Positions 9,831 through 27,937 are shown, counted from the first letter of the stretch. The stretch: 64,000 nucleotides of DNA from an uncultured Gammaproteobacteria bacterium (GCA_964402565.1 CAYOCJ010000001.1:568823-632822), one strand, 5' to 3'. A program made the numbers and translations. The notes: generated by a model not told the origin, from the letters alone.

Positions 9831-11711
9831 TTAATTAGTTTTAGAACTAAATGCATACAGGGCCGATACCTTGATCAGGCCGTCAGCATCAGTCGTATAC
9901 GCAAACGCCCGCGTCTGAAGCGTATCCGAGGGGTTGAGCTGGGTATAGGCGGCAAGCGCGTCCTTTTCAATCTGCATGAATTTCGCACGATCCGTGACGA
10001 TCAAACCAGTGTAATTCGCATTTATCCGCATGGTCACCGCAGCATCAGGCGTCGCATTCGGGCGTACTTCATAGGTGGCGATGGTCTTATCCATGAAAGA
10101 TGCCAGCAGGTAAGTCCCCGCTTTTTCCTGCTCTGAGACATAGACAGGGAAATTATCATTCCAGAGCTGCGCCGCTAAGTAGTCTGCAATTGCAGCATTC
10201 AAGGCATCTGGCGTCGGGTCTGCATGCGTTGGCGAACTATCGCTCAAGTGCTTTATGATAAGGTCTTTGGTAGCTCCATCAATAGAGATGACTTTGTCGA
10301 TCTGATATGTCTGGCGTTTGCCCGGAAGGCCGCCTTTTTGCACTGCTTCAGGCGATAAACCTACTGAAAAATTGAATGAAACATTATTAAGCACTTCTGT
10401 GGCCGTTATTGCCGGCGTTGTTGTGGCCACAGGACCAGGATTCACATCCAGAATGGGCGGCAAGTCCGGCGGAGGCGGTGCTGGTGTTGCATATTTCAGC
10501 CAAGCGAACCAACCAACGAGATTCAAGAGGATGAAAAAAACAACCGCCAGTGCAATAGTACGCTTCTTATCTCTGCTCATCGGCCTTGCCTGCCCATTCT
10601 CCTCTTGCGCTGCACTCGTTGGAATTTTCTTTATATCAGGAATCCAGTCGTTTTCTTTATGCTTCAAAAAGTTAATGGCATCGCTGCGGTCGCCAAGCGC
10701 GATGCGTGCTAGTCCCAACACATTCAAAAAAGTCGGCGCATACCATTCTTGCGTATCAATTTTAAAGAGTGGCGATGGTGCAGCGACGGTCGTCGGCAGA
10801 CCCAAATTCGATGAAAAGTAATCATCGATCCCTGCGAGAGACGCGGTACCCCCGGCAAGAAGAACTCTGTTCACGGCAGTGCCCGTTTTTCGTTCATAGA
10901 ACTTGATGAAGACCAGTAATTCGTCTTTGAGAGGCTGTACTTGGCCCTGAATGATGAGCATTTCGGCACCGTCGCCAGAGCCGTTCGCTGAACGCAAACC
11001 GCTGGCCATTTTTCTCTGTTCCGCTTCATTCTGGCTGATCTTCAACTTTTCTGCGAGCGCTGAGGTGATATTATTGCCGGCAATATTGATATTGATCGAT
11101 TCCTGCAATGCCCCTGTTCTAAAAATTGACGCTATCGTTGTCCGTGCACCGATATCAAGCAAAAGGACTGTCTCATCAACGCGTTCATCAATGGTCGCCA
11201 TCGCCAGCGCAAGGGATTCGAGCGTTACCAGCGAAACCTTCATTGATAACCCCTGAAATAACGTTACATATTCTTGAAGCAGCGGTGCATTCGTCGCAAC
11301 GAACAGATATTCTTTTGTATCACCAAGCGTCCGCAGCATACTAAAATCCGCAGCGATTTGTTTCGCGTCGAGCGGCATAGTCTGGACCGCTTGCGAGAAC
11401 AGAGCGGATGGAATTTGCTTCGCCGGCAGTTTCGCACCGATCGAAAGCGTTTCTACGTATACGCGCGACTCGGGCAACGTTATCACTACCTCATGGGCCG
11501 AGATCGGCGTTGGCTGGGCTTGCGCCAAAAGCTGCTTCACGGCTGCGCGAAGCTTATCCTGATCTATGATCTTTCCATCCTCAATGATGCCGCTTTCAAG
11601 TACTATCCTCGACTGGCTTTTGATCCGCAGGCTGCCTTTTTCTCTCAATAATTCAAGAGCCTCAATGGAAAAATCAGAAATATTTATTGCACAGGTCTTT
11701 CGTTCTAACAT
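9831..11711 (-). CDS. pilM: Type IV pilus assembly protein PilM (actin-like ATPase) fused to a PilN-like bitopic C-terminal region
   Basis: 626 aa. PilM-like DIGARTTIASIF and LLAGGTASLAGIDDYFSSNLGLPT, then a TM helix (IALAVVFFILLNLVGWFAWL) and a ~230 aa extracytoplasmic tail. Confidence 0.65.
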   Translation of the reverse strand: MLERKTCAINISDFSIEALELLREKGSLRIKSQSRIVLESGIIEDGKIIDQDKLRAAVKQLLAQAQPTPISAHEVVITLPESRVYVETLSIGAKLPAKQIPSALFSQAVQTMPLDAKQIAADFSMLRTLGDTKEYLFVATNAPLLQEYVTLFQGLSMKVSLVTLESLALAMATIDERVDETVLLLDIGARTTIASIFRTGALQESININIAGNNITSALAEKLKISQNEAEQRKMASGLRSANGSGDGAEMLIIQGQVQPLKDELLVFIKFYERKTGTAVNRVLLAGGTASLAGIDDYFSSNLGLPTTVAAPSPLFKIDTQEWYAPTFLNVLGLARIALGDRSDAINFLKHKENDWIPDIKKIPTSAAQEENGQARPMSRDKKRTIALAVVFFILLNLVGWFAWLKYATPAPPPPDLPPILDVNPGPVATTTPAITATEVLNNVSFNFSVGLSPEAVQKGGLPGKRQTYQIDKVISIDGATKDLIIKHLSDSSPTHADPTPDALNAAIADYLAAQLWNDNFPVYVSEQEKAGTYLLASFMDKTIATYEVRPNATPDAAVTMRINANYTGLIVTDRAKFMQIEKDALAAYTQLNPSDTLQTRAFAYTTDADGLIKVSALYAFSSKTN

Positions 11712-12143
11712 CTAATCAAGTATATCTTTATAATCGATAATGGTAAATGGGTTCGTCGCGATATTCACGTTCGTATTGGTCCTTCCGACCATGCTTCCGC
11801 CCAAAGCACTGGTAGTTGTAGCACTTGCATTGATCGTGCGGGTATTGCCGGAGCCGGCGATAATTGCCGTGCAATGCGTATTCGTGTCACCTGAGTTGAC
11901 ATTCAGGCTGACAGCGCCCGATACTGTATTATCCCTTCTGAGGCGCGCTAAAGCATTATTGACGCACGAGGACGTTAGATTTCCGACCTTGCTCGCTGAT
12001 AAGCGTGAATCACTTGCTATGGCCTCATCAGCATTCATGAGCGCGATAGAAAGGCCATAAATCAAAATGAACGACGTGATGATCATGACTGAGATCAGCG
12101 CTATAATACCCCGATTCGCATGAGATGCACGAGTCGTGCTCAT
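11712..12143 (-). CDS. Small N-terminally anchored protein, possibly a non-canonical minor pilin-like component (lacks the G-F-T-L-I-E motif)
   Basis: 143 aa. N-terminal hydrophobic helix NRGIIALISVMIITSFILIYGLSIAL, a Thr/Ser/Asn-rich tail, and ATGA-coupled to neighbours inside the pilus operon. Confidence 0.35.
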   Translation of the reverse strand: MSTTRASHANRGIIALISVMIITSFILIYGLSIALMNADEAIASDSRLSASKVGNLTSSCVNNALARLRRDNTVSGAVSLNVNSGDTNTHCTAIIAGSGNTRTINASATTTSALGGSMVGRTNTNVNIATNPFTIIDYKDILD

Positions 12144-13873
12144 GGGCTTTTCCTGAATGCTGAAGTACTGCTTGTCGTGTAGGTTGCTAAGTTAAAATTT
12201 GAAGGCAATGCCTGGCTGTCATAGCCCACATTAATAGTCGTTTCTATAGCCTGCCTGGAACCGACGGTCGTAGTAGCAAATACTAGCCCTCCGGACAATA
12301 CGCGCGCCCGTGACCGATCGACCAAATCAAATGTTTCAGTGTGGGAGCTTAATGGCGGAACATCGCAAGACGAGTTTCTTCCCGCACTCGGATAATTCTG
12401 ATAGCACACTAATTGAACCCCGTATTGGTATGGCACGAGGGCGCCGCTCGTTCTCAAGCGTTTCTGAGTCCCGCTTGAATCAGATCCTGAATATATATAC
12501 TCGCCGTCGAGCACCATGCCTCTGACATCATCGGTGTCAAGAAGTGTGCCTATAATCATCCCAATACCGCTATCGCTAAACGGTCCATCGGCGGCACATG
12601 GAGCTCCATCTCCGGTACACGGCGCCAGGTCAGAAAGCTGCCGTTTTTCTATAAGCAACTCATTTACGTTTCCAAAAAACTCACCTCCGGTGAACATGTA
12701 ATTGCTGTCAATGACCATCGACCACGGAAGAGCTGCGCCTATTACTGAATAGTCTGTCAAAACAGTAGAGCCATCGGTCAATGACACTTTCGCGACATAC
12801 CAATCGTAGTATGAATCATACCCTGCCGCATAAATATAGGATGAATTAACGGCGATTGCGGTACCAGCGCTTGAGAAGGTATCGTATACCTCGCCATAGA
12901 CCGATCCGAACCCGCCGACAACATCGCCGGTTGAAAGTGTCCGTTTGACTATAACTGATCCGTCATGGTTCACGCCGGGAAAACCGCCAGTGTGGTAATA
13001 ATAATCTCCGATAAGGTACATATACGTCGAGTCAATATCAATGCCCCACAAATATCGAAAAGAATTCCCCGTGAGCGAAAGGACTCCGCCGTGTACAAAA
13101 TTCGGATCATATGCACCGCTAATTTTACTTCTTTTTTCTATGCGCCAATCATTCCCGTCATCACCCGCGATATACAGATAGTCCGAGTCCGTTTTCATAC
13201 TATGGATCGTGGCGCCGCCAGTGCTCTCGACGTATCCGTCAGAGTCGAAGCCAGTATCCAGAGTTCCGGTTGCGGCATCTCTCTTTTCAATGGCGAAGTA
13301 GAGCACGCCCTGTCCGCCGATATACAAATTACCGCTGTCATACACCAAACTTCGAATGCTAACAGCACTGGTAAGTGTTCCGAGGGTGCCGAAATGCTTT
13401 TCAAGCGACAGGTCTGACTTTCTGCGCTTCGTAATCTGATTGCCATATGCCGTGTAAATATAGGTTCCATCCATGGCTATAGCTTGAGCGCCCGGCGTCT
13501 CTGAACCGGTGGTGCCCGCAGGCTTTATTGCAATTGCGTTCGTTTCATAATCCCCAGCACAGCCCGGAGGTAAAAATTTGAGTGATGATGTCGCGAAATA
13601 GAGATATAAGGTAGATGGGTCTGTATAACACTTATTACCGGAGCTGTCAGTGACAAAACCATCAGAATTCCTTACCAAAAAATTAACTAAGGACAACACA
13701 CGTGAAGCCGCGGCATGCATATCGCTGGTGATAGAAAAACGCAGCCGGGAGCCCTGTATAATAAAAGCGATATTGGAAAGCGCGACCAGAATGAAGGCCA
13801 GCACGCCAACGTAAATAATGAGCTCTACCAGCGAAAAACCCTTTTGGATCTTTTTTTTGAAAGGAAGCTTCAT
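12140..13873 (-). CDS. Type IV pilin-like protein with a class III (prepilin) signal, fused to a large beta-propeller-like repeat domain (PilY1-like tip-adhesin architecture)
   Basis: 577 aa. N-terminus KGFSLVELIIYVGVLAFILVAL is a prepilin cleavage/assembly motif. Recurrent Y-x-Y-x-x-G blades (YIYTAYGN, YLYIAGDD, YMYLIGDYY, YIYAAGYDSYYD, YMFTGGEF, YIYSGSDS). Confidence 0.6.
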   Translation of the reverse strand: MKLPFKKKIQKGFSLVELIIYVGVLAFILVALSNIAFIIQGSRLRFSITSDMHAAASRVLSLVNFLVRNSDGFVTDSSGNKCYTDPSTLYLYFATSSLKFLPPGCAGDYETNAIAIKPAGTTGSETPGAQAIAMDGTYIYTAYGNQITKRRKSDLSLEKHFGTLGTLTSAVSIRSLVYDSGNLYIGGQGVLYFAIEKRDAATGTLDTGFDSDGYVESTGGATIHSMKTDSDYLYIAGDDGNDWRIEKRSKISGAYDPNFVHGGVLSLTGNSFRYLWGIDIDSTYMYLIGDYYYHTGGFPGVNHDGSVIVKRTLSTGDVVGGFGSVYGEVYDTFSSAGTAIAVNSSYIYAAGYDSYYDWYVAKVSLTDGSTVLTDYSVIGAALPWSMVIDSNYMFTGGEFFGNVNELLIEKRQLSDLAPCTGDGAPCAADGPFSDSGIGMIIGTLLDTDDVRGMVLDGEYIYSGSDSSGTQKRLRTSGALVPYQYGVQLVCYQNYPSAGRNSSCDVPPLSSHTETFDLVDRSRARVLSGGLVFATTTVGSRQAIETTINVGYDSQALPSNFNLATYTTSSTSAFRKSP

Positions 13874-13876
13874 ACC

Positions 13877-16800
13877 TTATTCGAAATCAATCTGGACATC
13901 GTATAGCGTCGGCGTATCGAGATTCGAGGCGCAATTCGTAAGATCAGCCCGATACTGGAAGAAACGTTTCCCCTGTAACGTACTATCTCCTGAAAGATCT
14001 TGAGACACACTGCTCCCGCTTCCGGAATATGCAGTAGCAGATGCCCATGGCGTCGACGTAGAATAATCAGCAGTAGGTCCCGTATTAGTTCCGCGCACTT
14101 TCAAGGTAAGCGCACAGCCGGTCGGAATATTTTGAGACCAGGTTATCCTGAGCGCATTACGCTGGACGACGGCAGCATAGGTAGATACATCGATCGACTG
14201 GGATACCAGATACCCGGAACCTGCGTAATTCAGAACCACGGTGCCTGGCTGCGTGGTGAAGCTCCAGCTTGTGGTATCAGCTATTCCGGCATACGCGTTT
14301 GACGAGGCATCGAGAAATGCGTAGGCATCGATCTGTATATAATACTCTGTATTGCCAGCCAAAGTGACAGACGGGTCGATGGTTATCGTATTGGTACCGC
14401 TGCCAGTAACCTGGCTTAAGCCAGCGTCAATAGCCTCAACTGATGAATCATCTGATGTTTTTTTAATGTACACAAAATAACCTGCTTGAGCTGTAACAGC
14501 CTCGCTAAACGTAAGCACTAAATTCGTGGTTGCTGAAATACCAGTAGAGTTGTCTACCGGAGAGAGCGTATTCACCGTCGGAGCAGTATTGTCGACAACC
14601 GGTATCAATAGCGTCGCAGGCGTTGCCTGATCATTTGAAAAATCGTTGACCGTCAGGCGCAGACAATACGCCCCGCCATTTGCTGATGCAGCATCGGTCC
14701 CGCTTTTCCAGGCAAAATTTAAGGTATTTGCTCCGGATGCAGTCTTGATCTTCTTCGTAGAAGCCGTACCTATCTGGTAGCTATTGGAGTTATTCAGGTC
14801 GACGGTTCCATTGGTATCATAGTACGACGCCGTAATAGGACCTCCATTCAGCTGTTCCGGATCTGGCCCTGCAAGGGTAGCCTTGGTCCAAGATCCAGTA
14901 CATGAAGAGCCGCTTTGGTATTCAATTAATGCTTTTGACAAGTCGCCATTCGGATCATTCACGGTGATGTTAACGGGGATAATACCGGATGAATTAGACG
15001 GTGCCGACCCCCAGGTACCGGTAGGACGATTGTCGAAGGTGACACTGGTCTTACTAACCGTCGTAGCAGTGTTACCAGCTAAATCAGTTGCGTCGAATGC
15101 AAAAGTATAAATAGTGCCATTGACCAAGGTTGGTGCACTGGTACAACCAGAGCTCATATTAAAATTATTATGTCCTCCGGTATTCAGTGCAGCGCCTGTA
15201 AGCGTGCAGGTTTGATTGCTTGCTGCTGTACCGCCAGTGCGCGTCATGACGATCGTGCCACTTGCGATCGCTTCACTCAAGGTATAGCTCACATCTGATG
15301 ATGTGGTCACACTATCGATGGTCGAGCTGGAGTTCGGTAATACGCCCGATATAGTCGGCGATGTGGTGTCATAGGTCACACTGGTCCGTGAAACCTGTGT
15401 CGCCGTATTGCCTGCGGCATCAGTTGCATCAAAGTTAACTGTATAAATCGTGCCGTTGACTAGCGATTGCGCACTGGTACAGCCATTGGTCGTGTCGCTC
15501 AAATCAAGGTTATTATGTGCTCCGGAGTTCAAGGCAGTCCCCTTCAATGTACACGTGTGAGTAGTCCCATCAGTCGTACCACCAGTACGAGTAAAGACAA
15601 TGGTACCGCTCGTGATAGCCTCGCTTAAGGTATAACTGACATCAGATGAGCTCGTGATGCTGTTAATAGAGGTGCTCGATGCTGGCAATACTGATGAAAA
15701 TGCAGGCGCTGTAGTATCGTAGGTGACGCTTGTCGCAGATACTGTTGTTGCAGCATTTGCAGCGGCATCTGTGCCGTTAAATGCGAAGGTGTATACAGCG
15801 CCATCGACCAGCGTCTGCGCAATGCTGCAGCCATTGGTCGTATTCGTCATATCGAAGTTGTTATGCGCTCCGCTATTCAGCGCAGTACCGACCAAGGTAC
15901 AGGTATGCGGCGAAGATCCGTCTGATGTGCCCGATGTTCTGGTGACGGTGATGGTACCGCTTGCTATTGCTTCGCTTAAGGTATAGCTGACATCTGAAGA
16001 ACTTGAAATACTATTAATAGAGGTGCTTGATGCTGGCAAGGTCGAAGAAAAAACCGGAGCTGTTTTATCTGCAACAGTCGTAATCATAGGATAATGCGGA
16101 TAGCTATCGAGCGCAGTGCCTCCTGATTTTACTACTTTGAAACAATAATTTGTGCTTGCTGGCGTTCCATTATCGATCAAAGCATAGTCCCACATACCAT
16201 TGCCATTCAGTAGCATGGTATCGACGCTATCAGTGAAGTTATTCGCTTCTTCATAGGTTTGCTTATGTATCGTCTCTGATCCATGCGTCGGGTCGCTTGC
16301 ATTACTGGTAAGCGTAGCGCCATCGGCCGGAGAATTTGCAGTATTATAGGCAACGAGAGTCGAACTGGTGACATCAGTGTAGCTGGATGGTGTTCCTCCG
16401 GATGGTGACGCACAAGTGCCAGAGCCTTTATCCACGTACTGCAGTTTAAAATCCTGACCATTCTTGTACAACGGAGAGCTTGACGCGTGAACCAGTTCAC
16501 GCAGTCTGAACTGCTGGCCATTCGTGGTCAATGAGCCATTCGTATCCTGGGAAGCCAGCGCACTTCCCACGTCGGTCGAAGCAGCATTTGCAAAAAATCG
16601 AAACCCATCTTGAGCGTAGGTCTTCGCATGCCACGCTGCATACCGGTACGTCACGCCGCTCGAGTCTGTTTCAGTATTGTTGCCGACCGTAAAGCCATCG
16701 TTAGTGGTGGTCGTAATACGCGACGCGGCATTTGAAGTACCAGAAAAGTATTGTGTATTATCCGTTGCGATAGACCCGCTCCGGTGCACGCCTGAAACTG

Positions 16801-18640
16801 CACCGGTTTGCTTGATAAGCGTAAGATCAGGCTGGAATGTCAGCCCAGTGATCGAATGGCCGGCAGATCCTGTATACGACCCCACTTTGAAATTTGTACC
16901 GGTCTTAAATGCAAACCAGTAATAGTTGCTCGCTGACGTATTTACATTTGCATCGGTACCAAGCGTAAATCCAGCGCTATCCAGAGATGTGATAGCTCCT
17001 GAAGCAATGTCAGCAGTGGCAGCAAAATGCATAGCGACAGTACCGCCAGTGGACGATGTCTTCCAGATTCCCCATGTCGCTCCAAAACTTCTGGTGACAA
17101 GCAGATCCGGTTGGAAAGGCACCCGCGTGACGCTGCGCGCAAGTCCATTCCCATAATACACACCAATGGCAAAATCAGCAGCGCCGGTATTGGTCTCGGG
17201 ATTGAATGCATTTCCGAATGCCTGCCACCGATAGACTTGCGCATTCGTGTTCACCGTCGCGTTCGTACCAAGGGTAAAACCATCAGAATCAAGTGACTTG
17301 ATCTGATTATACGTTGCAGCAGAATTTAATGATAAATTTATTGTAGTCGTCGCAAGTAAATTCATCCTATACACGGTGCCGGATCCGGCGTCACTTTTGA
17401 TAATAACCAGATCTGGCCTAAACCCAACTCCGGTAATGGCTTTATTGTCGCTTCCGTTGCCTGTATACGAACCTGTGGCCATTGTAAAGGTTCCAGACCC
17501 CGATGGGGTACTTGCCCCTCCAATGGCAATGTAGTTATACGCAATTAAATTTGTATTTGAGTTCGCTCCCGCGCCTACGCTAAATTGCGCAGAGCCAAGC
17601 GACGTAATATGAGTTGTCGCATTCGCAGTATTAGTAAAAAAGCTCGTACTATCGCCGAAGCTTTCCGTTTCGTTAAAAACAGCGGCATTCGCTCCTGCAG
17701 ATTTTGTCATAGCAAACACTGGATTCAAACCTGTGGTAGTGATGTTTTGAGATGTGCCATTCCCTGCATACGTACCTGCAGCGAATGCACCGGATACCGT
17801 CTTAAATGCAACATAGTAATACGTTACTGCATTGGTATTTACTGCTGCTGCATTCGCTACGGTAAAACTGGTTGAGTTCAGCGAGTAAAAATTCAAATGT
17901 CCTGTTTCATTCGCGGTCGCTGAAAAGAAAGCTGCTGTTCCGGAAGCATGACTTGATGATGTCCACACGCCCTGGCCGGCCGTGGTTGCCGACTTGACCA
18001 TCACGAAGGCCGGCTGAAAACCCGTGCTGATGGTCTGGCTTGCAGCGCCATTGCCTGTATACGAACCAACGCAGAATGTACCGCTGCTCGAGCAATCTGA
18101 ACCATCAAAGGCTATCCACTTATACCGGGTAATGACGGTGGTTGTCAGTGCATTGACCCCGGCATCAGTACCAAGGGTGAATCCTCCATTCGAAGCCGAG
18201 TCCAGTGATGTGATTGCGCTGCCGAAATCTGCTGTCGCCGTATCGAGTACATTAGAATTCGTGCTGGATATAGACGTTGATTTCCAGACAACGCCTTTGC
18301 CGGCGGCAGTGTCGGCCTTGATCATGACCAGGTCGGGTGCTGAGGAAAAACCTAATCCTGAAATCGATTTCGTTGCATTTGAACCTATATAGTACCCTGT
18401 TTGAACTGAGAATGTTGCAGCTTTCGCATGTTCAACTCCGGGAAAGAGATAGCCCGAGTAGCCAAAAAACGTCCACAGCAAATGGATGAAGATCGCTGTC
18501 ACATACAAGACCGTATGCTGTATCCTCCGCACATGGCGCGCATGCAGCAAATCCATTTTTTCACCAAGCGCATGCTTCCACGTCTTTTTTCGCGATACTG
18601 TCTTTATCTTCATCTTTCTTTTTGTCTTCTTTTTTTGCAT
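13877..18640 (-). CDS. Giant membrane-anchored surface protein with N-terminal ~90-aa repeats (GFTLGT modules) and C-terminal SbsA/Big-like Ig domains; putative pilus-associated adhesin
   Basis: 1587 aa. N-terminal basic stretch then one TM helix. At least six GFT(L/V)G(T/N) repeat modules. Three near-identical ~114-aa Ig-like repeats (TAPVFSSTLPASSTSINSISSSSDVSYTLSEAIASGTI...), then a further SbsA_Ig-like domain. The start codon choice is uncertain; several in-frame Met. Confidence 0.6.
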   Translation of the reverse strand: MQKKKTKRKMKIKTVSRKKTWKHALGEKMDLLHARHVRRIQHTVLYVTAIFIHLLWTFFGYSGYLFPGVEHAKAATFSVQTGYYIGSNATKSISGLGFSSAPDLVMIKADTAAGKGVVWKSTSISSTNSNVLDTATADFGSAITSLDSASNGGFTLGTDAGVNALTTTVITRYKWIAFDGSDCSSSGTFCVGSYTGNGAASQTISTGFQPAFVMVKSATTAGQGVWTSSSHASGTAAFFSATANETGHLNFYSLNSTSFTVANAAAVNTNAVTYYYVAFKTVSGAFAAGTYAGNGTSQNITTTGLNPVFAMTKSAGANAAVFNETESFGDSTSFFTNTANATTHITSLGSAQFSVGAGANSNTNLIAYNYIAIGGASTPSGSGTFTMATGSYTGNGSDNKAITGVGFRPDLVIIKSDAGSGTVYRMNLLATTTINLSLNSAATYNQIKSLDSDGFTLGTNATVNTNAQVYRWQAFGNAFNPETNTGAADFAIGVYYGNGLARSVTRVPFQPDLLVTRSFGATWGIWKTSSTGGTVAMHFAATADIASGAITSLDSAGFTLGTDANVNTSASNYYWFAFKTGTNFKVGSYTGSAGHSITGLTFQPDLTLIKQTGAVSGVHRSGSIATDNTQYFSGTSNAASRITTTTNDGFTVGNNTETDSSGVTYRYAAWHAKTYAQDGFRFFANAASTDVGSALASQDTNGSLTTNGQQFRLRELVHASSSPLYKNGQDFKLQYVDKGSGTCASPSGGTPSSYTDVTSSTLVAYNTANSPADGATLTSNASDPTHGSETIHKQTYEEANNFTDSVDTMLLNGNGMWDYALIDNGTPASTNYCFKVVKSGGTALDSYPHYPMITTVADKTAPVFSSTLPASSTSINSISSSSDVSYTLSEAIASGTITVTRTSGTSDGSSPHTCTLVGTALNSGAHNNFDMTNTTNGCSIAQTLVDGAVYTFAFNGTDAAANAATTVSATSVTYDTTAPAFSSVLPASSTSINSITSSSDVSYTLSEAITSGTIVFTRTGGTTDGTTHTCTLKGTALNSGAHNNLDLSDTTNGCTSAQSLVNGTIYTVNFDATDAAGNTATQVSRTSVTYDTTSPTISGVLPNSSSTIDSVTTSSDVSYTLSEAIASGTIVMTRTGGTAASNQTCTLTGAALNTGGHNNFNMSSGCTSAPTLVNGTIYTFAFDATDLAGNTATTVSKTSVTFDNRPTGTWGSAPSNSSGIIPVNITVNDPNGDLSKALIEYQSGSSCTGSWTKATLAGPDPEQLNGGPITASYYDTNGTVDLNNSNSYQIGTASTKKIKTASGANTLNFAWKSGTDAASANGGAYCLRLTVNDFSNDQATPATLLIPVVDNTAPTVNTLSPVDNSTGISATTNLVLTFSEAVTAQAGYFVYIKKTSDDSSVEAIDAGLSQVTGSGTNTITIDPSVTLAGNTEYYIQIDAYAFLDASSNAYAGIADTTSWSFTTQPGTVVLNYAGSGYLVSQSIDVSTYAAVVQRNALRITWSQNIPTGCALTLKVRGTNTGPTADYSTSTPWASATAYSGSGSSVSQDLSGDSTLQGKRFFQYRADLTNCASNLDTPTLYDVQIDFE
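15040..16080 (-). repeat. Three tandem near-identical ~340-nt coding repeats (Ig-like domains) inside the giant surface protein gene
   Basis: Visible DNA repetition, e.g. gtgacactggtc...gccattgaccaaggt / ...gccgttgactagcg / ...gccatcgaccagcg units, encoding TAPxFSSxLPxSS...VSxTSVTYD repeats. Boundaries approximate (+/-30 nt). Confidence 0.7.
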
Positions 18641-18642: not shown

Positions 18643-19263
18643 CTAGCCGGTTGTCGTGGCTAATTCAAGTCTGCCCGTCGTAGACGGAACATCAACACGA
18701 TACTGCGTTTCCCAGTTTGTCGATCCTTCGGTCCATGCAGACGTGCTCGTCGCGCCGCTCCACATGGTCTGAGACATGCGCACCGCATCATCATTCGTAA
18801 GATACGCTTCGAACTTATAATCGCTCTGTCCGGCAGCGCTAATAACAACGACGACCTTTTTCGTATATTTATCATTGACGCCGCTTCCGATGGCGCCCGT
18901 AGCCAAATCTCTCTGGACTGAACTGATATAGATAGACCTGGTCAAGCCGCTTCGAACCTCAGTTCCTGTACTGATCACCCAGTCGCCGCTTGCATTCTTA
19001 TCCAGGCGGACCGATGTCGCTGAGTCATACGAATCACCTCCGTCATTCGCTTCCAATGAGCCCCAATTTCTATCAGAGATGATCTCTAAAGCTTCCATAG
19101 CATCGTCAGCGAATCGGGCTTTTTTTTGTATATCTCCAGTCCCGGTGAATGCAGAATAACTGCCTGTTGCAAGGTAGGTAATGCCGGCGCCGAGGATCAA
19201 AAATACCCCGATTGCTATAGTCATTTCTATCAGTGAAAATCCTTTAGTACAAAGCGTAGCCAT
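18643..19263 (-). CDS. Type IV pilin / pseudopilin (prepilin-type N-terminal cleavage/methylation domain)
   Basis: 206 aa. N-terminus MATLCTKGFSLIEMTIAIGVFLILGAG is the canonical G|FSLIEM pilin motif. Confidence 0.75.
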   Translation of the reverse strand: MATLCTKGFSLIEMTIAIGVFLILGAGITYLATGSYSAFTGTGDIQKKARFADDAMEALEIISDRNWGSLEANDGGDSYDSATSVRLDKNASGDWVISTGTEVRSGLTRSIYISSVQRDLATGAIGSGVNDKYTKKVVVVISAAGQSDYKFEAYLTNDDAVRMSQTMWSGATSTSAWTEGSTNWETQYRVDVPSTTGRLELATTTG

Positions 19264-20562: not shown

Positions 20563-21771
20563 TTATTGATGGATCCCTCCGATGATATTGCCGATCGGCA
20601 GGATGATGGACAGAGCCATAAAGGCAACCAAAAAACCAATGACCAGCAGGAGCACCGGCTCCAGAATGGTCGAGAGATTCTTCGAAAAAGAGTCAAGCTC
20701 ATCTTCATAGAACTCTGCCAGGTATTCGAAGGTTTCTGATAGATTTCCCGAAAGCTCTCCGACATTGATCATTTTCGTAACTAATGAGGGGAAAAAATGA
20801 GGGTACCGATGCAAGGTAACCGAGAGTGCTGTTCCCTTACGAACTTCCACCAGCATGGCTGCCACGCGATCCTGATACAGCGAATTGCTTAATGCGCGGG
20901 TCATGATGTCGAGCGACTCGTCGATGGTCAGTCCTCCCTGAAGCATCAATGCCATGGAACGGTTGAAGTTTGCCAGATTCGAGGTTTTACTGAATTGATG
21001 GCTAATCGGCAGATGATATACCAGCCAATGAATGTAGCGTTTGGTTTTCGGCAGTTTATTCGCGACGATCACAGCCACGATAGACCCGACAGCCGCAACG
21101 GTCACCAGGTACCAATACTTTTGCGAGAATGTCGCCACGACGATGAAAATTTTGGTCACCAATGGCAGAGCGACATTCAATGATTTGAACAATTGCAAAA
21201 ATTTCGGCAGGATGAAAATCGACAGCGTGATACCAAGGCCGCCTAATGCGATGATCACGATCGCCGGGTACATCATGGCCGACTGGATCTTGGAATGCAG
21301 GTCATGGTCCTTCTTCAGCTTGACGCTGAGGTTGATCAAATTCCTTTCCAAAGAACCGCTCTGCTCACCGATCTTCACCATGTTCACGAAAAATTCATTG
21401 AATGTGTACGGGAATAGGCGCAAGCCGTCAGAAAGCTCACTCCCTTTTCTCACGAGTTCAAGCAAACGCCGCAGGATCGATTTCATTCGTCCGCGCGACT
21501 GCTCATATAACGCTTCAATGCTCTCATCCAATACCATGCCTGACTTGATCATCAGGGATAAATGCTTGACGAAGAGCATCTTTTCTTTCAGCGGAACGAT
21601 GCCGAAGCCAGACAATGGCCGCTTGTGATATTTCTTGGAAACTGATTCCAGCGACTGCACGTCATAGCCCTGCTGCATCAATGAAAAATGCGCCTGCTTC
21701 AAATTTTCAGCATCGATATCCCCTTGGAAGATCTGCTTATTTTTATCGAGTACTCGATAATGGAATTGCAT
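20563..21771 (-). CDS. pilC: Type IV pilus / T2SS inner-membrane platform protein PilC/GspF
   Basis: 402 aa. Two T2SSF-type repeats with three TM helices. 1-nt gap to pilB downstream. Confidence 0.9.
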   Translation of the reverse strand: MQFHYRVLDKNKQIFQGDIDAENLKQAHFSLMQQGYDVQSLESVSKKYHKRPLSGFGIVPLKEKMLFVKHLSLMIKSGMVLDESIEALYEQSRGRMKSILRRLLELVRKGSELSDGLRLFPYTFNEFFVNMVKIGEQSGSLERNLINLSVKLKKDHDLHSKIQSAMMYPAIVIIALGGLGITLSIFILPKFLQLFKSLNVALPLVTKIFIVVATFSQKYWYLVTVAAVGSIVAVIVANKLPKTKRYIHWLVYHLPISHQFSKTSNLANFNRSMALMLQGGLTIDESLDIMTRALSNSLYQDRVAAMLVEVRKGTALSVTLHRYPHFFPSLVTKMINVGELSGNLSETFEYLAEFYEDELDSFSKNLSTILEPVLLLVIGFLVAFMALSIILPIGNIIGGIHQ

Positions 21772-21772: not shown

Positions 21773-23446
21773 CTATCCTCGTACTACTCTTATTATTTCT
21801 TCAATGCTGGTCTTCCCGACCAGCACTTTCTCGAGTCCATCCTCTACCATGGTAATCATACCATGTTCGCGTGCAACCTGGCGGATCTGGTCAGCATTCG
21901 CTTTCGACACGATCAGTTCGCGAATCGCATCATCCATCGGCAATACCTCGAAAATACCGATACGACCCTGATACCCGGTTTGGCTGCAGAATGAGCACCC
22001 TTTGCCCTTATACGTACGAGCCTGGCCTTCATACACGTACTTAGAAATATCGACATCGGCACCAAAGAGCTTCGCTAATTCAGTCTCAGAAACGCTTTCA
22101 CTTGCAATGCATTTCGAGCAAATTTTGCGGACGAGGCGCTGGGCGATGATAATGTCGATGGTCGACGCGATCAGGAACGGCTCGACATGCATATCATAGA
22201 GTCGCGGCAACGTGGTCGCCGCATCGTTCGTATGCAAGGTCGAAAGCACCAAATGACCGGTCATAGCAGCATTGATCGCAATGGCAGCTGTTTCCTCATC
22301 GCGAATTTCACCGACCATGATGATGTCAGGATCTTGGCGGAGCAAGGAGCGAAGACCTGCAGCGAAGGTGAGGTTTGTTTTCGGATTGACCTGGATCTGA
22401 TTCATGCCATCCAGGTAGTATTCGACCGGATCCTCAATAGTAGAAATATTGACTTCTCTGCTATTCACGATGAGCAGCAACGCATACAAAGTCGTCGTTT
22501 TACCGCTGCCGGTAGGCCCGGTGGACAGTATCATGCCATGAGGCTTTGCAATGGCATCACGCACCAGCTGCAAACCATGCTGCGAAAGGCCTAATTCCTC
22601 GAGCGAGGTCAGGCGGGAGTCGGGCGCCAATAAACGCATGACCACTTTCTCGCCTTGCGTTGTCGGCAAAATCGAAACACGAATATCGATGTCTGCTTTA
22701 TCAATGGACATCATCATTTTGCCGTCCTGTGCTGAACGGTGTTCATCGGTTCTGAGCTTGCTCAAAATCTTGATACGCGTGATGATCAGGTCGTGAATAG
22801 CCATAGGCAAAGTGAGCACATCGTGGAGAATGCCGTCAATTCTGAAACGGATCAGCACATCTTCTTTGTGCGGTTCGATATGAATATCTGAAGCTTTATT
22901 TTGGAAGCCATATGCCACGAGCGTATCTACGATCTTGATAACCGACACATCCTCTGCCCGGGCGCCCCGCGCCTTGAGCGCATTGACCTTAATGATCTCC
23001 TCAAATTGCAATTTGATGCTTTTTCGGTACTGAACCAGAGCCTGCTCGATCAAAAGCTCAGGGCAATAGTACGGTATAACGTGTTCACCGGTCTTCTTTT
23101 CCATCATTTTGATGAACTCGTAATCCTCGGGGTCAGACATTGCCAGTTTCAAGCCTTCGGCATCACGGCGGAATGCAAGTACGAAGCGTTTGCGGGCGAC
23201 CACTTCGGGTATTTCAGTAAGCGTTTCCGGAACAATAGCTTCTTTTCGCAGGTCGATAAATTTGACCTTATAATAATTGGCAAGTAATTGGCCGATCTGG
23301 TCTGCTTTAACGACATTCCGTTCTATCAAAACATCGGTCAAACGTTTCTGTTCACGGTCAACGATACTTAATGCCTCAGAAAGCACTTCAGGGCTTGCGA
23401 GGTTCACTTTTTGTATGATCTGTACTATGGCTTCTTTAGATAGCAT
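21773..23446 (-). CDS. pilB: Type IV pilus assembly ATPase PilB/GspE family
   Basis: 557 aa. Walker A LSTGPTGSGKTTTLYALL, Asp/His boxes GEIRDEETAAIAINAAMTGHLVLSTLHTND, tetracysteine CSKC...CSFC, and an N-terminal T2SSE_N-like domain. Confidence 0.92.
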   Translation of the reverse strand: MLSKEAIVQIIQKVNLASPEVLSEALSIVDREQKRLTDVLIERNVVKADQIGQLLANYYKVKFIDLRKEAIVPETLTEIPEVVARKRFVLAFRRDAEGLKLAMSDPEDYEFIKMMEKKTGEHVIPYYCPELLIEQALVQYRKSIKLQFEEIIKVNALKARGARAEDVSVIKIVDTLVAYGFQNKASDIHIEPHKEDVLIRFRIDGILHDVLTLPMAIHDLIITRIKILSKLRTDEHRSAQDGKMMMSIDKADIDIRVSILPTTQGEKVVMRLLAPDSRLTSLEELGLSQHGLQLVRDAIAKPHGMILSTGPTGSGKTTTLYALLLIVNSREVNISTIEDPVEYYLDGMNQIQVNPKTNLTFAAGLRSLLRQDPDIIMVGEIRDEETAAIAINAAMTGHLVLSTLHTNDAATTLPRLYDMHVEPFLIASTIDIIIAQRLVRKICSKCIASESVSETELAKLFGADVDISKYVYEGQARTYKGKGCSFCSQTGYQGRIGIFEVLPMDDAIRELIVSKANADQIRQVAREHGMITMVEDGLEKVLVGKTSIEEIIRVVRG

Positions 23447-23458
23447 GGCATTGTTTCA

Positions 23459-24058
23459 TTAAAATTGCTGCGCTCCGCATTGAGGACAAAATTTAACGCC
23501 TTTATCAAGCTTGGTCCCGCACTCCGGACAAAAATTATGCGCTGAACTTTGCTTTGGCCGAGAAGGTGCTGCTGCAGCAGGCTGTTCAACTGGCTGTACA
23601 ACAGGCGCCTTTTCTACTGAAGGTGACTGAGTAGCCGCAGCAACAGGTGTTTTCACAACAGCTGGAGCTTTCGGCTTAACCTTGCTCATGTGCAGGTGAT
23701 AGTCGATGCGTTCAGCGATGATATCAAGCGTCGTATTATCTTTGACCAGGTACTCCACAGCACCAAGATCAAGCGCTCGCTTCTGGTCATCGCTCTGAGC
23801 TAAATTTGAAAGAATGATGACCGGTATAGAGCTGAGCTCATCTGATCGCTGAAGATCAGTAAGTACTTCGAAGCCGCTCTTCTTCGGCATGATAAGGTCC
23901 AGGATCACACAGTCCGGCTTCAAAGTCATGATCTTCTGAAGACCGTCTTCGCCGTCGACGGCCAATTCAACGTCAAAGCCCTTATCATGCAGCTCCGCTT
24001 GGTAGACTTTGCGGAGGAAGCTGTCATCATCAATGAAAAGAACGGTGCCTTTACTCAT
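23459..24058 (-). CDS. CheY-like response regulator receiver domain with a C-terminal zinc-ribbon
   Basis: 199 aa. LFIDDDSFLRKVY...KPDCVILDLIMPKKSGFEVL receiver motifs, and C-terminal CPECGTKLDKGVKFCPQCG. ATGA overlap with the upstream CheA-like gene. Confidence 0.8.
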   Translation of the reverse strand: MSKGTVLFIDDDSFLRKVYQAELHDKGFDVELAVDGEDGLQKIMTLKPDCVILDLIMPKKSGFEVLTDLQRSDELSSIPVIILSNLAQSDDQKRALDLGAVEYLVKDNTTLDIIAERIDYHLHMSKVKPKAPAVVKTPVAAATQSPSVEKAPVVQPVEQPAAAAPSRPKQSSAHNFCPECGTKLDKGVKFCPQCGAQQF

Positions 24059-25626
24059 ACGATATGTTCAAAAAGTACTCGATGATTCACGATCGTTACC
24101 GGTATACCCTCCTCAGATACTGCTGCGCTCGAAACAAGCTTGCTTTTTTGAACCACCGGCAGACTCTGTGCCAATAACTCCTGCTCCTGAACTCCTGACG
24201 GTAAAAAGAGAGCACATCGGCGTCCTTCATGAACCACAATAGCTACTGCAACCGCATGCAATGCTGAGGCGTCTGCCCCATCGACGAATGCGCCGATAGT
24301 GCGCACCGGGACCTTTGCATTTCGATAGCGATACTCCGTCGGAACTGCGCCATCGGAAGGTAATTGTATAATTTTTTCTACCGTAAATAAAGGCAATGCA
24401 AGATAGTAGGCGCCCCATTGCCAGGTCAATGCACGGAACAGCGTGGGAGCCAATGGAACAATCAATTCAAAGGTTGTGCCCTTATTCTTTCCCCGGTTCG
24501 CGCTTCGCATTTCCATCGTGCCATGCAAGCCTTCCAGCACGCTTCGTACAAAAGGAAGGCCGACCCCGCGACCTGAAACCAACGATGCCTGTTCCCGGGA
24601 GCTGACACCTGCGCCTATTAAGAACTGCATGCGAAGCTCAGGCTTCATTTTCATCAGTTTCTGCTTCGTAGTCCGGTTATTTCGCAAAACAGATCGTTCC
24701 AGAGCGTCCCAATCAATGCCATGTCCCGTATCGCTCACCATGACATGCATGGCGCCTGCCCGCAGGTCGAATGACAGCCGAATAACTCCGGTGTCTCCTT
24801 CGCGGAATCCATGGTCAACGGCATTTTTGATAAGCTGTACGCAGGCCTCCCGCAGTGCTTCCAGGACCTGCGATTCAAAACGCATGTCATGGTCTTTGAA
24901 TTCGAAGGTGATGAATTTCTTTTGCTGCCTTGAGAGATCACGCACGAGCCGTGATAAGAATGCGAAATATTGGCGTACCGGAATAAGTTTCATGTCGATG
25001 ATCGCTTTTCTCAGATCACTGGCATGCGTGGCGAGATTATAAAGGCCGACCTTGAGCGCACCGATATCGTTCGAATGTAGAACGCGCTGCAATTGCTGCT
25101 GGGAAATCACAATATCATTGACCAATGCATACGCATTTTCCAATTCTGCAGAACTAATGTCTACATACGAACTTAACGGTGCGTATATTGAGCTGGTGGT
25201 ATCGCTCGTTGTTTGCGCCTGAGGCGCCGCCTGATCTGCCGCGCGAGTTTTTTTCCCTGATGGCCGCAAAGTGAATGCAATAGCAGGCCCGAGGTCTATT
25301 TCACTATCTGACTCGCGGATGCTATCAAGGTTGCGCCGGAACGCATCAATCGCCATAAAGCATGCGTCAAGACTGTCGCTCCCCAGCGACCGATTCCCCT
25401 GACGAACTCCGATGAACAAATCCTCTACTTGGTGCAATGCATTTGCCAGCGCCTGGTAATTCATGGTCGCCGCATCACCTTTGAGCGCATGCAATTGCTG
25501 CAGAATCGCATCGATCCCTTTCTTGTCATGAGGATTTTTTTCAAGAAGTATCAGCACATCCTCAAGATGCTTCAATTTGAGCGCTGCCTCGGACAAAAAG
25601 AGCTGCTTGTACTGGCTTACGTGCAT
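24055..25626 (-). CDS. cheA: CheA-like chemosensory histidine kinase (Hpt, dimerisation, HATPase_c, CheW-like domains)
   Basis: 523 aa. Hpt QQLHALKGDAATMNYQALANALHQVED; kinase LIKNAVDHGFREGDTG, VSDTGHGID, SGRGVGLPFVRSVLEGLHGTMEM, GKNKGTTFELIVPLAP; C-terminal CheW-like region. Confidence 0.8.
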   Translation of the reverse strand: MHVSQYKQLFLSEAALKLKHLEDVLILLEKNPHDKKGIDAILQQLHALKGDAATMNYQALANALHQVEDLFIGVRQGNRSLGSDSLDACFMAIDAFRRNLDSIRESDSEIDLGPAIAFTLRPSGKKTRAADQAAPQAQTTSDTTSSIYAPLSSYVDISSAELENAYALVNDIVISQQQLQRVLHSNDIGALKVGLYNLATHASDLRKAIIDMKLIPVRQYFAFLSRLVRDLSRQQKKFITFEFKDHDMRFESQVLEALREACVQLIKNAVDHGFREGDTGVIRLSFDLRAGAMHVMVSDTGHGIDWDALERSVLRNNRTTKQKLMKMKPELRMQFLIGAGVSSREQASLVSGRGVGLPFVRSVLEGLHGTMEMRSANRGKNKGTTFELIVPLAPTLFRALTWQWGAYYLALPLFTVEKIIQLPSDGAVPTEYRYRNAKVPVRTIGAFVDGADASALHAVAVAIVVHEGRRCALFLPSGVQEQELLAQSLPVVQKSKLVSSAAVSEEGIPVTIVNHRVLFEHIV

Positions 25627-26051
25627 ATATAGGTAGTGATAAGTTTCGGAATGTCGATGATGGTGATCTTCCTTTTTTGATGGTCGGTATATCTGAGCGT
25701 ACAGGCGAGCAATGGTTTTTTAAAATCAGCCATGCGCGGATTTGCTATCAGCTGCCCGACTTTTTCAACTCGAATCGCATAGTACGCGCCTTCATGCCTG
25801 ACGATCACTGCCTGATTCGCATTTCGCGAAACTCCCAGATTCATGATAGGCGCACAGTCGACCACGGTCATCAATTGGCCGAGCATATAGCCCAAGCCAA
25901 GTACTGACCGAGATCGATTGCCGGGGATCGTCGTGATCTGCGCAAGCGCAGTGACGCCATCGACTTGATCGACCGGCAATGCATACCAGCGGTCTTGTAT
26001 CGTAAATGGAAGTAAGGTGGTGATTTTTTTTATGGTTGCCATTTTGATCAT
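25617..26051 (-). CDS. CheW-like coupling protein
   Basis: 144 aa. Single CheW-like domain (RWYALPVDQVDGVTALAQITTIPGNRSRSVLGLGYMLGQLMTVVDCAPIM...AVIVRHEGAYYAIRVEKVGQL). Overlaps the CheA start and the MCP stop. Confidence 0.6.
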   Translation of the reverse strand: MIKMATIKKITTLLPFTIQDRWYALPVDQVDGVTALAQITTIPGNRSRSVLGLGYMLGQLMTVVDCAPIMNLGVSRNANQAVIVRHEGAYYAIRVEKVGQLIANPRMADFKKPLLACTLRYTDHQKRKITIIDIPKLITTYICT

Positions 26052-27937
26052 TTTCGAGATCCAATAAGCGATCCTAATCGCTGTACGATCACGCTTAACT
26101 TAGAGACCGCGGTACTGTTCGTCTTTATGCCTTTTTTCTGTTCTACCGAAACTGCTTGTATTCTCGTGGCTTCGCGCAGCGTTGATTTCGCTTGCGTATG
26201 GAGGTCAGTCATGCGTAATGCGATCTGGCTGGTGCTTTCAGACTGCTTTGCAACCTGTTTGTCGATAGCCTGTACACTCAACGCAATTTGCATTGCATCT
26301 TTCGACATCTTATTCAAGCTTTCCAGAGCGCGCGTAATGACTGTGAGGCTGTCGACCGCTTCAGAGCGTTCCCGCGATGATGCTTCCTTGCTGCGAAGCA
26401 GCTGTTGCTGTATGGACTTAACCAGCTCATTGATATGCTCGCTGGCCTCTCTGCTCAGCAATGAGAGCTTGCCTACTTCCGATGCAAGGCTCGAAACGCT
26501 ATGCATGCCGCGGTCCGTAGAGCTTGCTTCGATCGTAGCATTTAAACTTGCGTACGTCGTAGCCTGTGCAAGCGAACGAACATCGGCAGCGATCGAATCT
26601 ACTTGTTCGCTATACCTGCCGAGAGTAGTAATGAGCCCTTCGTGGGCTGTTGCAAGCTTCTTAATGCTCGCAATGCTCGTACGCGCCTCCTCTGCGTCAC
26701 GCTGGCCTTTGACTGCCAAGGCATCGATCAACTGTACACTGGCTGCCGCTTTCGCCGTTAATTTCCGGATATCCGCAAGCGAATCGGCGATCTTGGTCCC
26801 ATCAGTATCAACAGCTTTCATATTCTTCAATTGGTCCTTATAGTTCGTGAGCAAGCTCGTTGCAACAGCTTCCTGCGAGATCATGGTCGCCTCTGCCGTT
26901 GCAATGCCTGACTGTATGGCTCCGGTCGACGAGGTAATATCGGTGATGGTTTTAAAAATCGGCTTCACCAAAATACGGCTGATGAGCCCGACGAAAATAT
27001 ATAAAATGCCGAGCATCAAAATAAGCGAACCAATATAGGTCAAAAGCTGTAAACGCTCCTGCTCTTTCAGCCTCCCGATAATTTCATTGCGATCGACCAT
27101 GGTGACGAGGTACTGGGGAGAACCTGCGATCGAGACCGGCGAAATATGTATCATGACGGTATGCCCTGCGAAGGTCGTTTGCGCGATAATGCCATTGTTC
27201 GGCCTGCTTTGCTCGAGCCATGCAGACAGCGGAACGGTTGCCGCTCCCTGATCCGGAATTCCCAGATCAAAAGGCTGAGTTATCAAAACGCCAGTCGTAT
27301 CCGTCAGAAAAATATCCGCGTGTTTTGCAAGCCGGTCAGTGTCGATCGCGGCGTCAGATCCTACGCCTTGGAGCGCAAATGCTTGATCGCTGACGCCTTC
27401 AGCGAGGAACTCGTCAATATCTTGAATGGGATAGCGGATGACGATCCATTGATTCCCGGTGTCGACGCGTCTGCCTATGAAAACCGAATCCTTCGAAAAA
27501 TGAACCGCAGATTGCAGGTCAGTCGGCTGCGGGACCCATAAGTCTGATTCATTGGTGCTGAGCTGATACTGCGTCTGCAGCGAGCCGCTCGAAGAGATGC
27601 CATATATGATGCCGCGCGAAGCAAGGCCGCTTTGATCCCGCACTACCCCAGCAAGCGCCTGATCAAGAGCTTTCGGCGATGTCAGGCCTGATTCACGGGC
27701 TTCGGTCTGCAATGCGATAGCTTCAGCAATTTTTTGCCGTTCATCGAGATAGCGTCTGATCTGAGATGCTTTGACCGATGAAAAAAGCCCAAGCTCCCGC
27801 TGTGCCGAAAGAATGATCGCCTGTCGTTGGAAATAATAGCCAAGACTGCCCACTATGCATGCCGGAAAAATACCAGCCACCAAAAACCACAGTGCAAATA
27901 TGGCATTTAACCTGCTATTGGCTCTCTCGATCATCAT
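26048..27937 (-). CDS. Methyl-accepting chemotaxis protein-like transducer (two TM helices, ~270-aa extracytoplasmic sensor, HAMP, divergent MCP signalling domain)
   Basis: 629 aa. TM helices near residues 10-35 and 300-325. Signalling core TTYASLNATIEASSTDRGMHSVSSLASEVGKLSLLSREASEHINELV resembles the MCP hairpin tip [33 protein letters not shown] but is divergent. Confidence 0.7.
   Translation of the reverse strand: MMIERANSRLNAIFALWFLVAGIFPACIVGSLGYYFQRQAIILSAQRELGLFSSVKASQIRRYLDERQKIAEAIALQTEARESGLTSPKALDQALAGVVRDQSGLASRGIIYGISSSGSLQTQYQLSTNESDLWVPQPTDLQSAVHFSKDSVFIGRRVDTGNQWIVIRYPIQDIDEFLAEGVSDQAFALQGVGSDAAIDTDRLAKHADIFLTDTTGVLITQPFDLGIPDQGAATVPLSAWLEQSRPNNGIIAQTTFAGHTVMIHISPVSIAGSPQYLVTMVDRNEIIGRLKEQERLQLLTYIGSLILMLGILYIFVGLISRILVKPIFKTITDITSSTGAIQSGIATAEATMISQEAVATSLLTNYKDQLKNMKAVDTDGTKIADSLADIRKLTAKAAASVQLIDALAVKGQRDAEEARTSIASIKKLATAHEGLITTLGRYSEQVDSIAADVRSLAQATTYASLNATIEASSTDRGMHSVSSLASEVGKLSLLSREASEHINELVKSIQQQLLRSKEASSRERSEAVDSLTVITRALESLNKMSKDAMQIALSVQAIDKQVAKQSESTSQIALRMTDLHTQAKSTLREATRIQAVSVEQKKGIKTNSTAVSKLSVIVQRLGSLIGSRK

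Follow-up and report, generated by a model that had tools for sequence, protein, structure and literature searches.

We have found, in a stretch of 64,000 nucleotides (nt) of DNA from an uncultured bacterium (GCA_964402565.1, CAYOCJ010000001.1:568823-632822; the whole stretch is called the window hereafter), four chemosensory (Che) genes located directly before the motor gene of a type IV pilus cluster. Our interpretation is that they code for a working, minimal chemosensory pathway that would be built into the type IV pilus operon of a Komeilibacteria bacterium, an ultrasmall, reduced-genome member of the Candidate Phyla Radiation (CPR), and we put the probability of this reading at about 0.7. 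The evidence that carries it is the domain content of the genes, their intact catalytic residues, the presence of the Che-pil junction across distant CPR lineages and the clade of its own that is formed by the CheA kinases.

The cluster is made of thirteen open reading frames (ORFs) on the minus strand, from 27937 down to 9831, with successive genes -10 to +25 nt apart. It starts with a dCache chemoreceptor, CheW, CheA and a receiver with a zinc ribbon, continues with PilB, PilC and a group of prepilins, a probable adhesin and an anchored protein, and closes with a PilM fusion (lengths in amino acids, aa; TM, transmembrane):

26048-27937, minus: transmembrane chemoreceptor, 629 aa (Pfam MCPsignal 38.5 bits, gathering score 34.6; weak dCache_1)
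25617-26051, minus: CheW coupling protein, 144 aa (Pfam CheW 42 bits; ATGA overlap with the receptor gene)
24055-25626, minus: CheA kinase, 523 aa, P1-P3-P4-P5 (Pfam Hpt, HATPase_c and weak CheW)
23459-24058, minus: CheY-like receiver with zinc ribbon, 199 aa (Pfam Response_reg 82 bits, Zn_Ribbon_1 35.7 bits)
21773-23446, minus: PilB-type extension ATPase with MshEN N-domain, 557 aa (Pfam T2SSE 431.6 bits, MshEN)
20563-21771, minus: PilC platform protein, 402 aa (Pfam T2SSF twice, 183.9 bits)
19289-20551, minus: prepilin with lectin-like Laminin_G_3 (N_methyl and Laminin_G_3; cleavage motif G↓FTLLE)
18643-19263, minus: prepilin, 206 aa (Pfam N_methyl; motif G↓FSLIE)
13877-18640, minus: repeat protein, 1587 aa (Pfam DUF7483 four times, Big_3_3, Big_5)
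12140-13873, minus: prepilin with repeated YxY motifs, 577 aa (Pfam N_methyl only; motif G↓FSLVE)
11712-12143, minus: small N-terminally anchored protein, 143 aa (TM segment 9-39)
9831-11711, minus: PilM domain followed by a single TM segment and an outer domain of 220 aa, 626 aa in all (Pfam PilM_2 105.8 bits)

Read in order from the receptor to PilM, the genes are separated by gaps of -4, -10, -4, 12, 1, 11, 25, 2, 3, -4 and 0 nt, and three of the junctions are ATGA overlaps. The receptor, CheW, CheA and receiver genes are all joined by overlaps, and the gap between the receiver gene and pilB is 12 nt. A first-pass annotation, made by a model from the sequence alone, had given the coordinates, strand and order of these genes and had described gaps this tight with several ATGA overlaps; reading the ORFs of the minus strand bore it out on all these points.

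Conservation of the Che-pil junction

The CheA, receiver and receptor sequences were each recovered unchanged on an NCBI contig of 633 kb. The nearest named homologues of the cluster proteins are found in metagenome-assembled genomes of Candidatus Komeilibacteria (47–49% identity for CheA, 73% for PilB), which the NCBI taxonomy places within the Parcubacteria group of the Patescibacteria, in agreement with the CPR-like host that had been guessed from the sequence. The order methyl-accepting chemotaxis protein (MCP), CheW, CheA, receiver, PilB, PilC and pilins is kept in six Komeilibacteria lineages (CheA identities of 67, 47, 47, 42 and 41%) and, wherever the contig extends, PilB is followed by PilC, the LamG pilin and another pilin. 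Within Komeilibacteria this conservation is weak evidence because the upstream flank is collinear too, and it is the cross-lineage cases that carry the argument. The flank upstream of the receptor gene (28120-32183, minus strand) codes for an OLD-family ATPase/TOPRIM nuclease, an EamA-like protein, a GH5-like protein and a 153-aa membrane protein with no Pfam match at E up to 5; this order is the same in every Komeilibacteria relative and is not found in the other CPR lineages. Beyond it (32252-39303, minus strand) lies a cell-surface block of a sortase, a 1202-aa DUF11/DUF4215 protein, a CAP-domain protein and a DUF6938 protein, and this sortase/DUF11 block recurs upstream in relatives.

Searching with the receiver, we found proteins 45–62% identical to it on one Nomurabacteria contig and on three other contigs of the Parcubacteria group. 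All four of these contexts outside Komeilibacteria contained a receptor of 379–382 aa, CheW, a CheA of 516–522 aa, receiver, PilB, PilC, pilins and PilM, and their flanks were different, with Wzy_C and polysaccharide genes upstream and not the OLD, EamA-like and GH5-like genes. Since the junction outlasts the change of flanks in these four contigs, the adjacency of the Che and pil genes seems to be selected and not the product of chance. In every relative that we examined the two sets of genes were adjacent, and the separation in close relatives that the first-pass annotation had named as the sign of a chance arrangement was not seen. Two other loci taken up as possible relatives, L018 and L024, turned out to be Che loci of the ordinary kind, in which HAMP receptors or CheB are present and pilus genes are lacking.

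In a profile search of 1.84 billion representatives, 20,780 CheA-like proteins were recovered at E up to 1e-30, among which seven Komeilibacteria-type representatives scored 730–800 bits and six further short CPR-type CheAs 380–543 bits, while CheAs of similar architecture outside the CPR set reached at most 350 bits. A neighbour-joining tree of the P3-P5 region (72 sequences, 367 columns) grouped all 19 CPR CheAs in one clade in 100 of 100 bootstraps, divided into two subclades, the Komeilibacteria type and the short-receptor type, and apart from the long multi-Hpt CheAs and from those of Bacillus, haloarchaea, Vibrio and Pseudomonas. The distances are near saturation (1.8–2.2), and the tree supports no sister group for this clade. 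A scan of genome contigs with the single CheA sequence gave only CheAs of Bacillus, Nitrosomonas and Kofleriaceae, at 22–23% identity. The profile also gave 34 separate matches along a protein of 4858 aa (P0247), the strongest of them in the kinase region.

The four signalling proteins

The receptor has TM segments at residues 9-36 and 296-329. Its AlphaFold2 (AF2) model (predicted local distance difference test, pLDDT, 70) consists of the first TM helix, an alpha/beta ectodomain, the second TM helix and two long helices (337-473 and 480-626); the homologue search by word index gave five proteins, and with such a shallow alignment the model is only of moderate quality. By Foldseek the ectodomain resembles the dCache domains of PctA, PctB and Mlp24, the cytoplasmic part aligns with Thermotoga maritima TM1143 (2ch7) over 308 of 309 columns, and the whole receptor resembles full-length models of the Bacillus subtilis McpB type. 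The cytoplasmic domain, of ca. 306 aa against 305–309 aa in TM1143, is matched end to end, so there is no space for a HAMP domain in the receptor, and none is present. TM1143 is reportedly a 44-heptad receptor, and judging by length and alignment only, the receptor described here would also have the 44-heptad length.

The tip of the receptor aligns with that of TM1143 without gaps at an offset of 320 (EASSTDRGMHSV against EAARAGEAGRGF). It retains LNAxIEA and SEV, while ARAGEAGRGF has been exchanged for SSTDRGMHSV. The divergent core noticed by the first-pass annotation is thus real, though it is not a shortened motif, given the gapless alignment. The methylation consensus motif is absent from the receptor and its close relatives, and adaptation by receptor methylation is probably absent. 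The dCache ectodomain is optional, as the Komeilibacteria receptor P0245 (403 aa) and all of the 379–382-aa receptors are without it. P0245 and the receptors of L058 (6885-8024), L059 (6895-8037) and L061 (6900-8048) have two TM helices separated by a very short loop and the same hairpin of ca. 310 aa.

The CheW gene keeps its position in all the relatives examined. In the case of CheA, the core shared by all these kinases consists of four domains, P1 (Hpt), P3 (dimerisation), P4 (kinase) and P5 (CheW-like) (Berry et al., PMC10782961). Pfam recovered P1, P4 and a weak P5 and missed P3. The AF2 model (13 homologues, mean pLDDT 77) has a five-helix Hpt domain (3-117), a two-helix P3 hairpin (159-213), a kinase domain and a CheW-like double barrel, and there is no P2, residues 124-156 being a disordered linker in the model. 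The best Foldseek matches of the model were the E. coli core signalling unit and T. maritima CheA-289, and the family profile run against PDB matched CheA-289 from residue 154, at the first P3 residue of CheA-289, with an E-value of 4e-52. Over P3-P5 the PDB profile hits reached an E-value of 1e-52. Taking Pfam, model and profile together, the CheA of the locus contains the four core domains. The phosphorylated histidine is His46, within an HxLKG motif, and is invariant in 14 sequences together with N268, D299/G301/G303 and G352/G354/G356 (the N, G1 and G2 boxes). The searches with Pfam, the PDB profile and Foldseek therefore recovered the MCP, CheW and CheA domains whose absence would have spoken against the first-pass annotation, and all four signalling proteins look functional.

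The fourth of them, the receiver, has its receiver domain at residues 1-120, followed by a Pro/Ala-rich linker and a C-terminal zinc ribbon with four cysteines. D10, D11, D54, S84, Y103 and K106 are invariant across 79 CPR receiver homologues, and in every relative examined the gene stands between those of CheA and PilB. The ribbon motif (CPxCG..KFCPxC) appears in 41 of the 120 top homologues and is absent from 38 receiver-only proteins (134–161 aa). Two receiver-only genes that we sampled (138–148 aa) occupy the same place in the gene order of sister CPR lineages. The ribbon reported in the first-pass annotation is there, then, but it is an optional addition, accessory and not the core output, because sister lineages keep the gene order with the receiver alone. 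Homologues of 264–295 aa (L060) were set aside, as they are part of ordinary HisKA two-component pairs and not of this system.

When the window was compared with the Nomurabacteria-type loci, the identity of the receiver was 62% over the domain (45% with the linker; mean of 63% over 26 x 53 pairs), that of PilB 57% and that of PilC 38–41%, against 28–30% for CheA, 27% for CheW and 24–26% for the receptor. The receiver domain is the most conserved part of the signalling set and diverges at the pace of PilB, unlike the sensory proteins. From a receiver that is conserved like PilB we infer that it touches the conserved machinery of the pilus in a constrained way, and the pilus motor is the putative target. 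It could also be supposed that the receiver works through its zinc ribbon on a nucleic acid or another non-pilus target, so that the Che module would regulate expression and the adjacency to pilB would be operon economy. Zinc ribbons can bind nucleic acids, and the motif is highly conserved where present, but the sister lineages with ribbonless receivers, the lack of any DNA-binding domain detected by Pfam and the concentration of conservation in the receiver domain itself make this explanation improbable.

A pilus-directed pathway might operate as follows. An external ligand would be bound by the dCache ectodomain of the receptor, whose hairpin would set the activity of CheA, held to the receptor by CheW and by its own P5 domain. 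CheA would phosphorylate itself on His46 and the phosphoryl group would pass to Asp54 of the receiver. The phosphorylated receiver would then act on the pilus motor encoded downstream, either PilB or the platform of PilB, PilC and PilM, altering the frequency or the position of pilus extension and so giving a bias to movement or attachment by means of the pilus, toward a host cell for instance. There would be no adaptation by methylation, and the signal would end with dephosphorylation of the receiver. Both the transfer from CheA to the receiver and the final output, be it movement, attachment or DNA uptake, are predicted here from the proteins encoded.

Pilus genes, transcription and possible outputs

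The type IV pilus set is of the single-membrane type and includes PilB, PilC, PilM and prepilins with a G↓F(T/S)L(L/I/V)E signal. For PilB the best NCBIfam model was the type IV-A PilB (541.8 bits), with 189.5 bits for the PilT family. Its residues 15-56 gave a weak match to the MshE-type motif for binding cyclic di-GMP (22.2 bits against a cut-off of 38). The start of the LamG prepilin is uncertain, being a TTG here and 6 nt downstream in public gene calls. The 1587-aa repeat protein is a probable pilus-associated adhesin and varies among relatives, with fn3 or LamG proteins in its place in L010, L058 and L059; adhesin and pilin genes in general differ from lineage to lineage. A beta-propeller that had been proposed for the 577-aa prepilin was not recovered, as its C-terminal 537 aa are without a Pfam match even at E up to 5.

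The 143-aa anchored protein has a pilin-like N-terminus without Glu5, no match in Pfam (E up to 5) or NCBIfam and a weak similarity to the genes at the same position in L058 and L059. In the last gene, which had been read as a PilM-PilN fusion, the PilM part is confirmed by Pfam, while the supposed PilN half, beyond the TM segment at residues 383-408, has no Pfam match even at E up to 5. Its topology is PilN-like, with one TM segment and then an outer domain, and this outer domain had no family match at E up to 5. An equivalent fusion of 581–609 aa closes the cluster in L058, L059 and L061. A further prepilin, with N_methyl and T2SSG, is located at 55567-56553 on the plus strand, about 28 kb from the cluster, and is a candidate for the major pilin, the pilins of the cluster looking of the minor or adhesin type.

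Pfam scans covered every ORF of at least 150 aa in the 64-kb window, out of a contig of 633 kb, and found no CheR, CheB, CheC, CheD, CheZ, PilT or PilD domain, no CheV and no flagellar or other motility genes. The first-pass annotation had remarked on the absence of PilT and PilD from the cluster, which holds and extends to the rest of the 64 kb, though both may be encoded elsewhere in the genome. This bears on the output, for the same pilus-linked pathway might gate DNA uptake or the attachment to and release from a host instead of movement, as in systems devoted to alternative cellular functions. In the literature CPR pili are tied mainly to contact with hosts and to the uptake of DNA (PMC7143001, PMC11809585). 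Lectin-like and Ig-like pilins and adhesins abound in the cluster, there is no PilT in the window and there are no signs of methylation adaptation, which matters most in the navigation of gradients. On the other side, PilT may be elsewhere on the contig and the signalling logic would be identical to that of motility control. We hold this alternative to be possible but rather doubtful.

Two features border the cluster:

27938-28119, minus: intergenic gap of 182 nt upstream of the receptor gene, the largest of the region
8318-9814: AMP phosphorylase, the next gene after the PilM fusion (NCBIfam 548.6 bits against a cut-off of 535)

The gap is the likely start of the transcription unit, on weak evidence, and contains a terminator-like hairpin with a run of T at 27975-27954 on the minus strand. 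Judging only by the gene overlaps, the Che and pil genes would be carried on one transcript. At the other end, the AMP phosphorylase that the first-pass annotation had placed after the cluster is there, above the NCBIfam cut-off.

Several observations weigh against a working pathway coupled to the pilus. The Pfam score of the receptor is barely over the threshold, and its tip, the part that contacts CheA and CheW, is strongly diverged. The lack of PilT in the window leaves retraction-driven twitching unproven. A scan for promoters and terminators gave numbers of matches at the chance level of shuffled sequence. Besides, the same tight packing on the same strand runs on downstream through unrelated metabolic genes as far as 2324 (the AMP phosphorylase, a hydrolase, an acyl-AMP ligase, an aminotransferase and a histidine kinase) and spacing by itself cannot delimit the unit, since equally tight spacing is the norm of the genome and reaches unrelated genes. 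Finally, unrelated genes upstream are also syntenic within Komeilibacteria.

The degenerate tip, the genome-wide tight spacing and the upstream synteny could be taken as signs of an adjacency that is due to chance or inheritance without any coupling, or of Che genes that are decaying relics. Yet the junction persists in other candidate phyla with different flanks, the catalytic residues are invariant and the reading frames intact over a range of 41–67% identity, and translational overlaps link the four Che genes, with 12 nt to pilB. Conservation across lineages in this way largely refutes chance or decay, which we regard as very improbable, and favours a functional pathway joined to the pilus.

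Nowhere in the 64 kb of the window did we find a tRNA gene or an Rfam family above threshold. The first 6000 nt have a guanine plus cytosine (GC) fraction of 0.35–0.39, against ca. 0.48 in the remainder, and could be foreign DNA or a mere compositional island; they code for an asparaginase-like protein, a 7TM-only protein, a 7TM-GAF-HisKA kinase and an aminotransferase. At 46669-47531, on the minus strand, there are two overlapping ORFs of 152 aa with no family match.

Relation to known chemosensory systems

Chemosensory systems have been divided into 17 flagellar classes, a single class serving type IV pili (Tfp) and another for alternative cellular functions (ACF) (10.64898/2026.05.11.724246; PMC10782961). 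The system described here would be a form of chemosensory control over type IV pili. What sets it apart is the CheA clade, the minimal set of four genes, a receiver (with zinc ribbon or without) whose gene stands directly before pilB, and the presence in several CPR lineages. We have compared it with the systems that resemble it most.

The Pil-Chp system of Pseudomonas aeruginosa (PilJ, PilI, ChpA, PilG/PilH, PilK and ChpB; Tfp class) is like our locus in leading from receptor, CheW and CheA to CheY for the control of type IV pili, with a single-domain receiver as output. In its kinase ChpA there are many Hpt domains and, at the C-terminus, a receiver (PMC10782961), whereas the CheA of the locus, with 523 aa, has one Hpt domain and no receiver by Pfam and AF2. 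The CPR CheAs fall outside the long multi-Hpt CheAs in the neighbour-joining tree, in which there were no class-labelled Tfp references. The receptors also differ, PilJ being a 40-heptad receptor and that of the locus having the (44-heptad) length of TM1143. PilK and ChpB, the homologues of CheR and CheB, belong to Pil-Chp, while no such protein was found in the 64-kb window and the receptor is without methylation motifs. The Pil-Chp genes are not fused to pilB-pilC, whereas the Che genes of the locus stand directly before pilB. We have not placed the system in the Tfp class because it has neither the multi-Hpt CheA with a receiver nor the 40-heptad receptor. The Pil-Chp or Frz-like label given in the first pass can be kept as a functional analogy, both being tied to type IV pili, but not as membership, given the one Hpt domain, the missing receiver, the 44-heptad length and the separate CheA clade.

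The F1 class (B. subtilis, T. maritima and archaea), which serves flagella or the archaellum, shares with the locus the receptor length and the McpB-like fold. CPR cells have a single membrane. The best NCBIfam model for the CheA was the haloarchaeal (F1-type) CheA_Halo, at 194.5 bits against a cut-off of 950, with the E. coli type also far below its cut-off at 105.8. Most hosts of F1 systems have a single membrane, and the archaeal ones drive the archaellum, which is a type IV filament machine (bioRxiv 10.64898/2026.05.11.724246). In contrast to F1, there is no P2 in the CheA of the locus, no CheC, CheD, CheV, CheR or CheB was found in the 64-kb window, the receptor has a diverged tip and no HAMP, and the output is a bacterial type IV pilus. 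The CPR CheA clade is not nested among the F1-labelled sequences of the tree. Although the receptor length fits, the system was not placed in F1 either, because it lacks P2 and, in the window, the auxiliary proteins, and the tree gives the CPR clade no clear sister group.

Two further cases are of interest. In cyanobacteria, the Tax/Pix systems of Synechocystis are a chemotaxis-like control of type IV pili without CheR and CheB, and their regulators of the receiver type reportedly target PilB1, the extension ATPase. Going only by their description, they differ from the locus in their photosensory GAF receptors, in a hybrid CheA with a receiver, in regulators of the PATAN-REC or CheY type without zinc ribbon and in genes that are not fused to pilB-pilC. 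A metagenomic locus (L019; Ga0209343_10002173, 1-11852) has a CheA on the same strand and less than 8 kb from PilB (46% identical) and PilC. It contains CheA, CheC, CheD, three receivers, two prepilins, a fourth receiver, PilB, PilC and a GspH-like pilin. Unlike our locus, its CheA has a dimerisation domain that Pfam detects, CheC and CheD are present and there are four receivers, none with a zinc ribbon. With a CheA outside the CPR clade of the tree, it represents another kind of pilus-linked Che cluster.

A more tentative proposal, which we consider unlikely though worth stating, is that the CPR module could be a chemosensory class of its own. An F1-like array of 44 heptads would have been recruited independently to the pilus, reduced to four genes without adaptation by methylation and with a receiver that, whether or not it has a zinc ribbon, binds PilB directly. 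The short-loop receptor, which is the common form in CPR, may in that case read the state of the pilus or of the pilin pool in the membrane, and the dCache ectodomain would have been added in Komeilibacteria to respond to a chemical cue. If this were true, host-dependent ultrasmall bacteria would seek or hold their host cells by sensory control of the pilus.

Papers on CPR genomes state that chemotaxis genes are absent (PMC11809585, PMC7143001). A full-text literature search, which covered few subscription journals, so that an earlier description is possible, gave no paper that connects Che genes with pili in CPR, Patescibacteria, Parcubacteria or Komeilibacteria. In one preprint the Patescibacteria are named as one of the phyla with chemoreceptors and no comment is added, and a 2024 perspective on the biology of Patescibacteria does not mention chemotaxis. 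As the junction recurs in other CPR lineages, some CPR organisms that are supposed to be non-chemotactic probably steer the activity of their pili by sensing.

How host-dependent CPR cells find and keep their partners is a question for which a sensory pathway wired to the pilus offers a testable handle. Its parts are a receptor (with dCache in Komeilibacteria), a kinase and a single output regulator encoded beside PilB, its likely target. In the same way, a system as small as four genes, with an apparently separate CheA lineage, would be useful to learn what receptor-kinase arrays need at the least and how they came to be coupled to type IV filament machines.

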